From NCBI RefSeq assembly GCF_056712565.1, contig NZ_CM160072.1: 64,000 nucleotides of DNA; one strand, written 5' to 3'. The notes beneath the pieces are model-generated. The model worked only from the letters and a program-made list of their open reading frames with translations, made no database searches and was not told where the DNA came from. Shown piece after piece: positions 43,071 through 49,883 of this stretch (position 1 is its first letter; each line of letters begins with the position of its first letter). The translations under genes were made by a program, and so were the position numbers.

Positions 43071-44726
43071 TTAGTCAGATTTAATCTGCGCGCGTGGTGG
43101 ATATTTTTTCAGGATCTCCATATACGCGTGCATTTCGGTCTGTAGCGGTACACCCATCGGAATATGGCGCACGCCGATAGAGTCGCTTTCCTGCGGATCG
43201 GTGTACAGGTTAAACACCGACGATCCCGCCGTTTGCATTACTGTGCCGGTGAATCCACCCTGATATCCGCTCTGGGTATAAGCGTAAGGTTGCTGAATCA
43301 GGACGTGATACTTGAACTCATCCATACGCACAGCAGAAAGTTTACCGTTGAGGAAGTAGTGCTCGGCCTTACGGTTAGACTGACCATTTGTTCCCAGGAA
43401 GAAAGATGTCTGGTCCACACCATCGATAAAGGTGGTTTTCGGTACTAAATTCGCTACTTTCGCCCCAGGATGCCCCGCCAGATCCAGCGCCGTAGGGAAG
43501 AGATCCGCCAGATCGACAATGCCGTCAGATTTACGCGGTTGGATCATGCCTTTCCAGTAAACGAAGGTTGGCACACGAACGCCGCCTTCCCATGTAGAAC
43601 CTTTCGCACCGCGGAACGGCGTGCGACCGTGCGGCGGAACTTCGGCTTCCGGACCGTTATCAGAGGTGAACACAATCAGCGTGTTATCAAGCTGACCGTT
43701 TTTCTCCAGTGCTTTATACAGATTGGCGAAGATATCGTTCATCTCCACCATGCAGTCGCCGTAAGAGGTGCGCGCCGGAGAGCTACCCGCATATTTGGCG
43801 TTCGGGTAGTTATCGAAGTGACAGCCGCGAGTGCCGTAATAGAGGAAGAAAGGCTTATCACTCTTCGCCATCTTGTCGAGGAACTTAACGCCATATTCCA
43901 TCCAGCGTTGATCCAGGTCTTCCATATATTTCGGCGTAATGTCGGCAATGGCTTCCTGTTCACCGCCGCGCACGGCATGAACGTCATCTTTGCTGAACGG
44001 CAGTTTTTGGATGTATTCAGAACGAGCCGGGCTCAGGGCGACTTCCGGGTTGACATGAACATCACGCCATTCGGTATACATATCGGACACCGAGTTAAAG
44101 CCGCGGAAATCATCAAAGCCAACGTTCTGCGGCTGCGACTCTTTGTTTTCCCCCATATGCCATTTCCCGATAGCCTGGGTGACGTAGCCCTGATCGTGCA
44201 GCAACTGCGGCAGCGTGGTTAACCCTTGCAGACCGCCCGGTTGCCCGTACATTGGCGGCATCAGAATGCCGTGGTGGATGGAGTATTGTCCGGTGAGAAT
44301 CGTGGCGCGGGTTGGGGAAGAACTCGGTTGAGAATACGCCGAAGTTAAAATCAGCCCCTGGCTGGCAACGGCGTCGATATCTGGTGTAGGGTTACCCACC
44401 GCCACGCCGCCGCCGTTAAAGCCAACGTCCATCCAGCCCACATCATCCAGCAAGAAAACAACCACGTTCGGTTTCTTACCGGTTTTTTTCTCAAGTTCCG
44501 CCAGTTTCTGCTGGGTTTCTTTGTCTTGTGCAGGATGCTGCATCACCGGCATCATGTTGTCGGCAATAGTGGTCGCCGGTTTAACCAGATACTGGTTTGG
44601 GTGATCGTATCCGGCAAAGCCTTTGCGTGCGGTGGCGGTTGACGGGGTATCTGCTGCGCTGGCTATGAGAGGAAGAGCTGCGGCGACAGCAACAACAAGA
44701 AGTTTGGGTGAAAACGAAAATTCCAT
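43071..44726 (-). CDS. aslA: arylsulfatase-family periplasmic protein
   Basis: 551-aa ORF with N-terminal signal peptide ([24 protein letters not shown]); sulfatase fold. Confidence 0.92.
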
Positions 44727-45150
44727 GCAAAATGCTCCGGTTTCATGTCGTCAAAATGATGACGTAATTAAGCATTGATAATTGAGATCCCTCTCCCTGA
44801 CAGGATGATTGCATAAATAATAGTGATAAAAATAAATTATTTATTTATCCAGAAAATGAATTGAAAAATCAGGAGAGCATTTTCAATCCTACCTCTGGCG
44901 CAGGTGATATGTAAGGCGGTGATGTTATATCGCGTTGATTATTGATGCTGTTTTTAGTTTTAACGGCAATTAATATATATGTTATTAATTGAATGACTTT
45001 TATTATTCATTATATATATGTGTAGAATTGTGCGCAGGAGAAATATTCACTCAGGAAGTTATTACTCAGGAAGCAAAGAGGATTACAGAATTATCTCATA
45101 ACAAGTGTTAAGGGATGTTATTTCCCGGTTCTCTGTGGCATAATAAACGA

Positions 45151-45357
45151 GTAGATGCTCATTCCATCTCTTATGTTCGCCTTAGTGCCTCATAAACTCC
45201 GGAATGACGCAGAGCCGTTTACGGTGCTTATCGTCCACTGACAGATGTCGCTTATGCCTCATCAGACACCATGGACACAACGTTGAGTGAAGCACCCACT
45301 TGTTGTCATACAGACCTGTTTTAACGCCTGCTCCGTAATAAGAGCAGGCGTTTTTTT
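45151..45357 (+). ncRNA. glmZ: GlmZ small regulatory RNA
   Basis: gtagatgctcattccatctcttatgttcgccttagtgcctcataaactccggaatgacgc...ctgctccgtaataagagcaggcgttttttt matches the ~207-nt GlmZ sequence incl. intrinsic terminator; track ORF 45262..45612(-) over it is spurious. Confidence 0.85.
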
Positions 45358-46603: not shown

Positions 46604-47797
46604 TTATTCTCCTTGCGGCGCGGCTGCCGGAGCATCAGCTTGCGGTGCAGGTGCAGGTGCAGGTGCAGGTTTAGCTTCCGTTGTCCCTGCTGCCGGTTGT
46701 GCCAGCAGGTTACGCACGCGGGTCTGCATCAATTTTTCCAGCATCGCCTGGCTTTGCAGGGTTTCCGGAAGATCCATCGAGATATTTTGCTGGCTTAACT
46801 GGTCCACCTCGTCGAGGAACGCTTTGGTGGTGGCATCATCAGTATCGTAGTAAGCACGTACCCAGGTGGAGACGTTCTCCAGCGCCTGGCGATAAGTCTC
46901 TTCCTGGTGACGCGGTACAGCTTGTGCTGCGACCAGCAGGCGAGAGCGAATATTTTCGCGCAGATAGATATCCTGATTTGGCGCTAACAGCGGTACGGCG
47001 GTGTCATCACGACGGCGAATCGTAATGAAGTTGTCCATAAAGTTCTGCCAGCTTTTTTGCAGATTGATACGCCATTCGCTGATGGAACTGGAAAGCTCTT
47101 CACCGTCGGAATCCATCGGCGAACCATCGCTGTCATTATCGGCCAGACGCAGATTATCTACCTGATTTGAAAGCTGATTAAGCTTAAGGATGATACCGTC
47201 ATAATCCACCTGCGATACCGCAGAAAGGCTGGCGATATCATCGGTAATTGCCCGGCGAACGGTAATCAGACTCGGGTCATTCATATCCGCCAGGCTGGCG
47301 TCTGCACTTTTCAGCAACGCTGCAGCGGTCGTGACGTCCTGATCGCTCCACAGCTTCCGTCCGGCGAGTTTCACCAGAAAATCGGCCTGGGCCAGCAGCC
47401 AGGTTTTAGCATCGCTGCCGGAAATGGTGGCGACCTTTTGTTGGACTTCATCCAGCTGTTTTGCCAGCGTTTCTTGCTGACGATTCGCCTGCTCAAGCTG
47501 TACAGCTTGTTGCTTGATAATGCCTTCCAGCTCGGCTTTTTGGCTCTCCTGGGCTTTTTGCAGTGCCGTAAGTTGGTTAGCCAGGGCATCGCTGGTGGCA
47601 GTCTGATTGACGGCCTGTTGTTTACCCCAGCCATACAAACCGACGCCCGCCGCCAGAGCAATAGCGATAGCCACCGCGCTGAGAATCAATGCGGTATTGT
47701 TCTTACTCTTTTTTTCTGTTGCGACAGGTTGTGACGTGGTGTCCACGGCCTCCCTGGTCTCTTCAACCACGGCGGAGGTTTTTTCTTGTTCCGTCAT
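46604..47797 (-). CDS. hemX: HemX (membrane-anchored coiled-coil protein)
   Basis: 397-aa [21 protein letters not shown]...; C-terminal Pro-Ala repeat ([22 protein letters not shown]). Confidence 0.9.
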
Positions 47798-49497: not shown

Positions 49498-49883
49498 GCT
49501 TGTTACCGTCATTATCATCCGTGGTCCATCCTAACATCCTTGCCAGAGCGATGTCAGTGTTGTGGTGAAACGTAGACGCCTGCGCAAACCGTAAAATGAG
49601 GTCTGGCAGTGGATCCTGACAGGCGCTTTGAGCCTTCGTAATAAGGAATTTACAGAGAATAAACGGTGCTACACTTGTATGTAGCGCATCTTTCTTTACG
49701 GTCAATCAGCAAGGTGTTAAATTGATCACGTTTTAGACCATTTTTTCGTCGTGAAACTAAAAAAACCAGGCGCGAAAAGTGGTAACGGTTACCTTTGACA
49801 TACGAAATATCCCGAATGCCGCGTGTTACCGTTGATGTTGGCGGAATCACAGTCATGACGGGTAGCAAATCAGGCGATACGTC

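Follow-up and report, generated by a model that had tools for sequence, protein, structure and literature searches.

The AT-rich, H-NS-targeted aslA-glmZ spacer of Escherichia coli bears a self-sufficient glmZ promoter at its edge and a 15-bp tandem repeat that is probably young and neutral

The aslA-glmZ locus and its composition

The DNA analysed here (the window, a stretch of 64,000 nucleotides whose positions are counted from its first letter) carries aslA, an arylsulfatase gene, and glmZ, which encodes a small RNA, in divergent orientation, separated by a 424-bp spacer, with hemY next after GlmZ (Table 1). Over bases 44700-45200 the window shows 100% identity to the E. coli type strain ATCC 11775, and this segment was matched in 5,425 of the 5,426 complete genomes of the species. 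The name aslA follows the annotation of the 100%-identical ATCC 11775 record (NZ_CP033092.2) and of K-12. GlmZ is 100% identical to its K-12 counterpart, and a terminator scan placed its intrinsic terminator at 45323-45352 plus the T run. The spacer represents a B2-type allele with 94.1% identity to that of K-12, the differences being clustered at 45005-45043, just upstream of the repeat described below, and at 44918-44925.

As stated in a preliminary description of this region, the roughly 400-bp spacer is AT-rich and falls far below the local G+C content, with a value of 0.33 compared with 0.524 for the whole window. No other 424-bp stretch within the 64 kb has a lower G+C content, just 0.13% of such windows being as low, and TpA steps in the spacer reach 9.9 per 100 bp compared with 4.2 for the window (2.4-fold). 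One of the runs quoted in that description had been mis-transcribed (the window reads aaataaattatttatttatcc at 44830-44850), and the remaining quoted strings are exact.

The aslA gene itself varies in integrity within the species. In 8 of 30 evenly sampled E. coli records only an N-terminal stub of it is left, about 46 codons long and carrying the annotation of an incomplete arylsulfatase (at 190-327 in both L005 and L006, which keep aslB and the spacer, and at 2098-2238 in L007), whereas the aslA gene of the window (43071-44726) is intact.

Table 1. Features of the aslA-glmZ region and conservation of spacer segments (positions in the window)
Feature	Position	Strand	Description
aslA coding sequence (arylsulfatase)	43071..44726	-	551-aa ORF; start codon 44726-44724
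aslA-glmZ intergenic spacer	44727..45150	.	424 bp, G+C 0.33; in vitro H-NS target
Imperfect 7-bp tandem ATTGATA/ATTGAGA	44774..44787	+	BL21 (BL21-AI, L003): one extra ATTGATA unit
Best-conserved internal block ATCAGGAGAGCATTTTCAATCCTACCTCTGG	44868..44898	.	28/33 columns invariant (44866-44898) vs 59% for whole spacer
Second conserved block ATCGCGTTGATTATTGATGCTGTTTTTAGTTTT	44929..44961	.	overlaps IHF-like match 44928-44940 (- strand, one mismatch)
Tandem repeat TATTcACTCAGGAAG / TATT-ACTCAGGAAG	45044..45073	+	15-bp period; Tandem Repeats Finder
glmZ sigma-70 promoter	45115..45144	+	exact match to ATGTTA-N15-tggCATAAT, K-12-validated (PMC3045617)
GlmZ small RNA, including intrinsic terminator	45151..45357	+	Rfam RF00083, full length, 218.4 bits, E = 2.1e-57
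Invariant columns, aslA-proximal part	44727-44800		59/74
Invariant columns, internal block	44866-44898		28/33
Invariant columns, just upstream of repeat	45022-45043		1/25
Invariant columns, repeat	45044-45073		12/30
Invariant columns, whole spacer			253/428 (59%)

The 15-bp tandem repeat

The near-perfect tandem repeat reported earlier in the spacer was recovered by Tandem Repeats Finder (1.9 copies, 93% matches), with a score of 53 that is only just above the default threshold of 50. Its units share the exact 10-mer ACTCAGGAAG, found at 45049-45058 and 45064-45073, that is, 15 bp apart. The repeat does not lie "just upstream" of the glmZ -10 element, where it had been placed; it occupies positions -107 to -78 from the glmZ +1 (the exact 10-mers span -102 to -78), leaving about 40 bp to the downstream -35 hexamer and about 65 bp to the -10 hexamer, and is 318-347 bp upstream of the aslA ATG. 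When the spacer is shuffled with its dinucleotides preserved, close exact direct repeats of at least 10 nt arise in 1.7-2.9% of cases, and five occur across the 64-kb window, indicating that the repeat is real and only mildly unusual.

Two possible roles suggested by the sequence of the repeat were considered and set aside. A regulon signal for ACTCAGGAAG, sought within the window, was rejected, the only further copy there falling inside the rho coding sequence, and a 40-aa small ORF across the repeat (44989-45111, TTG start) was discarded because the K-12 alignment shows its frame to be closed by stop codons. Elsewhere in the window, another direct repeat, GGTGCAGGTGCAGGT (46644-46670, self-match at an offset of 12), lies inside a minus-strand ORF at 46604-47797 that is annotated as hemX in matching genomes.

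A constitutive glmZ promoter independent of upstream sequence

The glmZ promoter consists of a -35 hexamer ATGTTA (45115-45120), a 15-nt spacer and an extended -10 element tgg-CATAAT (45136-45144), and ends 6 nt before the 5' end of GlmZ, whose model begins at 45151. Göpel et al. (2011, Nucleic Acids Res 39:1294; PMC3045617) established ATGTTA-N15-tggCATAAT as the Escherichia glmZ promoter, the activity of which is abolished in K-12 by mutation of either the -35 or the -10 element. Using plasmid lacZ fusions in standard culture only, these authors found equal activity for K-12 glmZ'-lacZ fusions spanning -424..+32 and -40..+32, so that sequence upstream of -40 is dispensable. In addition, the -424..+32 fragment, which contains the entire spacer, was not bound by GlrR, and expression was unchanged by deletion of glrR or rpoN, from which they concluded that one single, constitutive sigma-70 promoter drives glmZ (PMC3045617). 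The glmZ side of the locus is thus already known and is one of the better-dissected small-RNA promoters.

Although that work makes no mention of the repeat, its deletion result transfers to the window, since K-12 carries an identical two-copy repeat and is also identical from 45042 to +1 save for one spacer base. Under the conditions tested, glmZ transcription is therefore independent of the repeat. This disposes of the earlier proposal that the direct repeat is an activator site for glmZ; the promoter-fusion deletion analysis suggested at the time as a check had been published in 2011, with a negative outcome for glmZ under those conditions (PMC3045617).

H-NS targeting, curvature and factor motifs

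In the compilation of Shimada et al. (2014; PMC3946193, Table 1), aslA<>glmZ is a type-A spacer that holds an RpoD-holoenzyme site and an H-NS site, the "HNS" mark meaning that the spacer contains one of 987 H-NS sites obtained in vitro by genomic SELEX with K-12. The characterization of the tract as H-NS/Fis-bound curved DNA accordingly holds for H-NS binding in vitro, but finds no support in curvature or in Fis, H-NS and IHF motifs. Prediction of curvature and of H-NS motifs, which had been proposed as a check, yielded nothing beyond composition. A wedge model, which counts as weak evidence here, gave the spacer an unexceptional mean bend of 11.0 degrees compared with a background of 9.4, and by the same calculation 21% of the 120-bp windows in the surrounding 14 kb were more curved than the spacer. 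The nine A/T tracts of the spacer (at least four bases each) show no 10-11 bp phasing. The high-affinity H-NS motif tCGATAAATT has one match with at most two mismatches, compared with 1.3 ± 1.0 in shuffles, and consensus matches for H-NS, Fis, IHF, CRP, Lrp and GlrR in the spacer are not in excess over composition-matched shuffles. The repeat itself has no match to the few GlrR, CRP, IHF, Fis or Lrp consensus sequences tried.

The spacer resembles the H-NS-bound AT-rich promoter spacers of the SELEX study (PMC3946193) in its high A+T content and TpA frequency, its divergent flanking genes and its in vitro H-NS listing. However, it differs from them in having neither strong predicted curvature nor an above-chance tCGATAAATT match, and in that the flanking glmZ promoter is constitutively active despite the H-NS site. 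By the same wedge model, the strongest predicted bend in the 14 kb examined lies at about 49590-49740 of the window (end-to-end/contour ratio 0.70, G+C 0.43-0.47), which is far more curved than the aslA-glmZ spacer.

Origin of the repeat within Escherichia

In a scan using one genome per species, the matches listed include four other Escherichia lineages, namely E. albertii, Escherichia sp. E1V33 and the divergent "E. coli" E69 and SCPM-O-B-8794, as well as many other Enterobacteriaceae, and they contain no E. fergusonii, Salmonella or E. coli representative. In all four lineages aslA adjoins glmZ across a spacer of 423-428 bp with a G+C content of 0.31-0.33. The second ACTCAGGAAG is absent from all four of these other Escherichia lineages among the matches listed, its position being occupied in E. 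albertii, E1V33, E69 and SCPM-O-B-8794 by GTGTGTGAAGG, GCGAACGAAAG, GCAAGTGCATG and GCGAGCGAGAG, respectively. The absence of the second copy from the outgroups indicates that the perfect repeat is a derived state of E. coli sensu stricto. The segment at the second unit is nevertheless of unchanged length in the four outgroups, the difference consisting of six contiguous positions, so that a simple duplication cannot explain the repeat. This pattern suggests, from sequence comparison, an origin either by templated copying of the ACTCAG located 15 bp upstream or by duplication plus deletion.

Conservation was scored as invariant alignment columns among six two-copy-length Escherichia sequences (Table 1), and by this measure few parts of the spacer are less conserved than the repeat zone. 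No counterpart of the repeat was present in Superficieibacter, Pseudocitrobacter or Kluyvera in the spacer alignment.

Copy-number alleles and tolerance of the spacer to change

Within E. coli, the one-copy allele was sought among 5,426 complete genomes with a 48-nt junction probe for which full coverage was required. It was found in 176 genomes, of which 173 are at least 99% identical to the probe and share one flank haplotype, a distribution that points to one or a few deletions passed on by descent and away from frequent switching. Two copies are unchanged in about 4,956 of the 5,426 genomes, and a three-copy probe matched only two-copy genomes among the 5,426. In strain CUVET20-PYO4, a 15-bp indel removes exactly one unit. 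The one-copy genomes include SMS-3-5 and several ST648-labelled strains, which we take to belong to phylogroup F. The one-copy allele is clonally distributed and evidently tolerated.

These features recall short repeats produced by slippage or template switching, in that the copies are head to tail, strains are polymorphic for exactly one 15-bp unit, the outgroups have no second copy and another small tandem indel, the extra 7-bp unit of BL21, occurs in the same spacer. A simple duplication does not fit, however, as the outgroup length is equal here and a templated replacement or a duplication plus deletion is required.

The spacer also tolerates larger changes. It is in routine use as a neutral integration site, with engineered insertions in K-12, and these insertions, the additional 7-bp unit in BL21 and a natural IS1 replacement together indicate that it accommodates change. 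The replacement was observed in strain Res13-Lact-PEB21-38-A (record L007, 2234-3001), where IS1 takes the place of the whole spacer together with the glmZ promoter and 6 nt at the start of GlmZ, corresponding to about 44720-45156 of the window, with cattacc joined directly to GCTCATTCC at the junction. The native glmZ promoter is accordingly missing from this strain.

Candidate control elements on the aslA side

Two internal blocks stand out in conservation (Table 1) from a spacer that otherwise evolves fast. The block at 44929-44961 is 82% identical over 33 nt to Pseudocitrobacter faecalis (E = 4.6e-5); no other internal segment of the spacer matches that species with clear significance, a second match of 28 nt having E = 0.002. 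Judged by their conservation, the blocks at 44868-44898 and 44929-44961 are better candidate cis-elements for aslA than the repeat. A consensus promoter scan gave no good sigma-70 match on the aslA (minus) strand, and we know of no reported transcription start or promoter for aslA, so that silencing of aslA by H-NS is something we infer rather than observe. In E. coli K1, aslA mRNA is induced by LL-37 in an indirectly RpoE-dependent manner (PMC9147696).

A 9-bp complementarity links 44875-44883 with 44729-44737 in the aslA ribosome-binding region and could, in a long leader, join an upstream element to that region. It is perfect only in the B2-type allele and in E69, and K-12 and most Escherichia have a mismatch at 44879. 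The pairing and a three-codon ORF were rejected as conserved features, as G for A at 44879 breaks both.

Gene order and the GlrR/sigma-54 architecture in other genera

GlrR/sigma-54-type glmZ regions were recognized by three TGTC-N10-GACA sites about 150-250 bp upstream together with TGGCAC-N5-TTGCA at -24/-12. GlrR sites at about -246, -214 and -151 plus TGGCAC-N5-GTGCAATAAT are present in Enterobacter, Lelliottia, Kosakonia and some Citrobacter, and in genera of this type the 400 bp upstream have a G+C content of 0.38-0.51, mostly 0.44-0.50. In contrast, the aslA-adjacent genera scanned (Escherichia, Superficieibacter and Pseudocitrobacter) have values of 0.30-0.34 and no GlrR sites; in Kluyvera aslA is also upstream, and its spacer was covered by the alignment only. 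The window spacer contains no TGTC-N10-GACA site with at most one mismatch and no TGGCAC -24 element. Since low G+C accompanies the aslA neighbour and higher G+C the GlrR architecture, the AT-richness goes with aslA and not with glmZ.

Between genera, the spacer can be aligned at three places only, namely the aslA-proximal part, 44929-44961 and the glmZ core promoter. Similarity to the sigma-54/GlrR-type promoters (records L012, L016, L033, L117 and others) begins at about -20, where the window reads GTGGCATAAT (45130-45150) and those promoters read GTGCAATAAT. Together with the lack of GlrR sites in the aslA-adjacent genera scanned, this suggests that a rearrangement placing aslA beside glmZ may have removed the ancestral GlrR/sigma-54 enhancer along with the -24 element, leaving the sigma-70 core. 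The GlrR (QseF)/sigma-54/IHF enhancer known from glmY, and also from the glmZ genes of Yersinia, Salmonella, Enterobacter and others, precedes an orthologous small-RNA gene at the same position, and the last ~20 bp of the promoter are homologous, with GTGGCATAAT here and GTGCAATAAT there. The Escherichia spacer, however, is not bound by GlrR (PMC3045617), and the sequence of the repeat is unrelated to GlrR sites.

A sigma-54-like sequence, TGACAGGATGATTGCA (44798-44813, plus strand), faces glmZ from 340 bp upstream. It was rejected as not significant, having two mismatches that include the essential GG (here GA) and being weaker in K-12.

Possible functions of the repeat

The repeat could be a transcription-factor site, for an activator or a repressor, acting on aslA or on glmZ under other conditions as a lineage-specific cis-element of E. 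coli, a possibility that we consider unlikely. It comprises two exact 10-mers, and so long a close repeat appears in only ~2-3% of spacer shuffles; its centre-to-centre spacing of 15 bp, however, would make the copies face nearly opposite sides of the helix, whereas direct-repeat-binding response regulators typically use 10-11 bp and AraC-type regulators ~21 bp, and the site is 318-347 bp from the aslA ATG. Retention of both copies unchanged in about 4,956 of 5,426 genomes is in line with a binding site, and a weak function would yield the same near-universal two-copy pattern as recent common ancestry. Yet the one-copy allele is fixed in 176 genomes, and the second copy is absent in 4/4 other Escherichia lineages among the matches listed, all of which have kept the spacer and aslA. 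As aslA has no recognisable sigma-70 promoter, it may depend on an activator, and its mRNA is condition-responsive in E. coli K1 (LL-37, indirect RpoE; PMC9147696); the repeat nonetheless lacks a GlrR, CRP, IHF, Fis or Lrp consensus match and is unnecessary for glmZ promoter activity (PMC3045617). On comparative and geometric grounds, a role of the repeat in the control of aslA, the other gene for which an activator site had been suggested, is disfavoured. An extended form of the idea, in which the ancestor of E. coli sensu stricto would have gained, by a templated mutation, a new two-copy cis-element through which a regulator would tune aslA, an invasion factor of K1 for brain endothelium, appears very unlikely; if it were true, the one-copy lineage (SMS-3-5, ST648-type) would be a natural regulatory variant for aslA.

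Another conceivable function, with a slim chance of being correct, is that a long aslA leader, transcribed from a divergent promoter back-to-back with that of glmZ, has the repeat at its 5' end and that the repeat acts at the RNA level. The best promoter-like aslA sequence that Shimada et al. (PMC3946193) give for the spacer, TTAACA-18-TGTAAT, maps to 45111-45082 on the minus strand of the window; a start near 45075 would put the repeat at about +2 to +27, where, as read from the sequence, its minus strand gives CUUCCU twice and is anti-Shine-Dalgarno-like. That promoter, however, is a computational best match, and the glmZ promoter itself explains the SELEX peak. In addition, the second base of TGTAAT is not the A that is key in a -10 element, E. 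albertii has TGCAAC, the consensus scan gave no minus-strand promoter, a leader of ~350 nt at 70% A+T would be unusual, and one mapped-start dataset (Kim 2012), whose coverage may be incomplete and which therefore counts for little, has no aslA entry.

A phase-variable contingency locus, whose copy number would switch often and modulate expression, is highly improbable and largely refuted, because although strains do differ in having one or two copies, there are just two alleles among the 5,426 genomes with three copies in none, 173 of the 176 one-copy genomes have the same flank haplotype, and two copies of a 15-bp unit slip poorly compared with classical contingency repeats.

Interpretation and significance

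Collectively, the region is probably best understood as an AT-rich, H-NS-targeted control region of aslA with a self-sufficient glmZ promoter at its edge, in which the 15-bp repeat is young and probably neutral. The spacer would be the regulatory spacer of aslA, AT- and TpA-rich and H-NS-binding, of which the constitutive sigma-70 (extended -10) glmZ promoter would fill just the last ~40 bp. H-NS may nucleate on the AT-rich tract and polymerise across the aslA promoter region, and such coverage would hold aslA silent in ordinary culture. The repeat probably arose as a young mutation in E. coli sensu stricto, with one lineage later losing a copy by inter-repeat deletion. The closest characterized system is the K-12 aslA-glmZ region dissected by Göpel et al., which has the same locus, promoter, 424-bp spacer length and two-copy repeat and a 100% identical GlmZ, and from which the window differs in its B2-type spacer allele (94.1% identity). 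The finding is ordinary and largely explained already in the literature, carrying little import beyond bookkeeping; whether one or two copies of the repeat are present marks lineages cleanly within E. coli.
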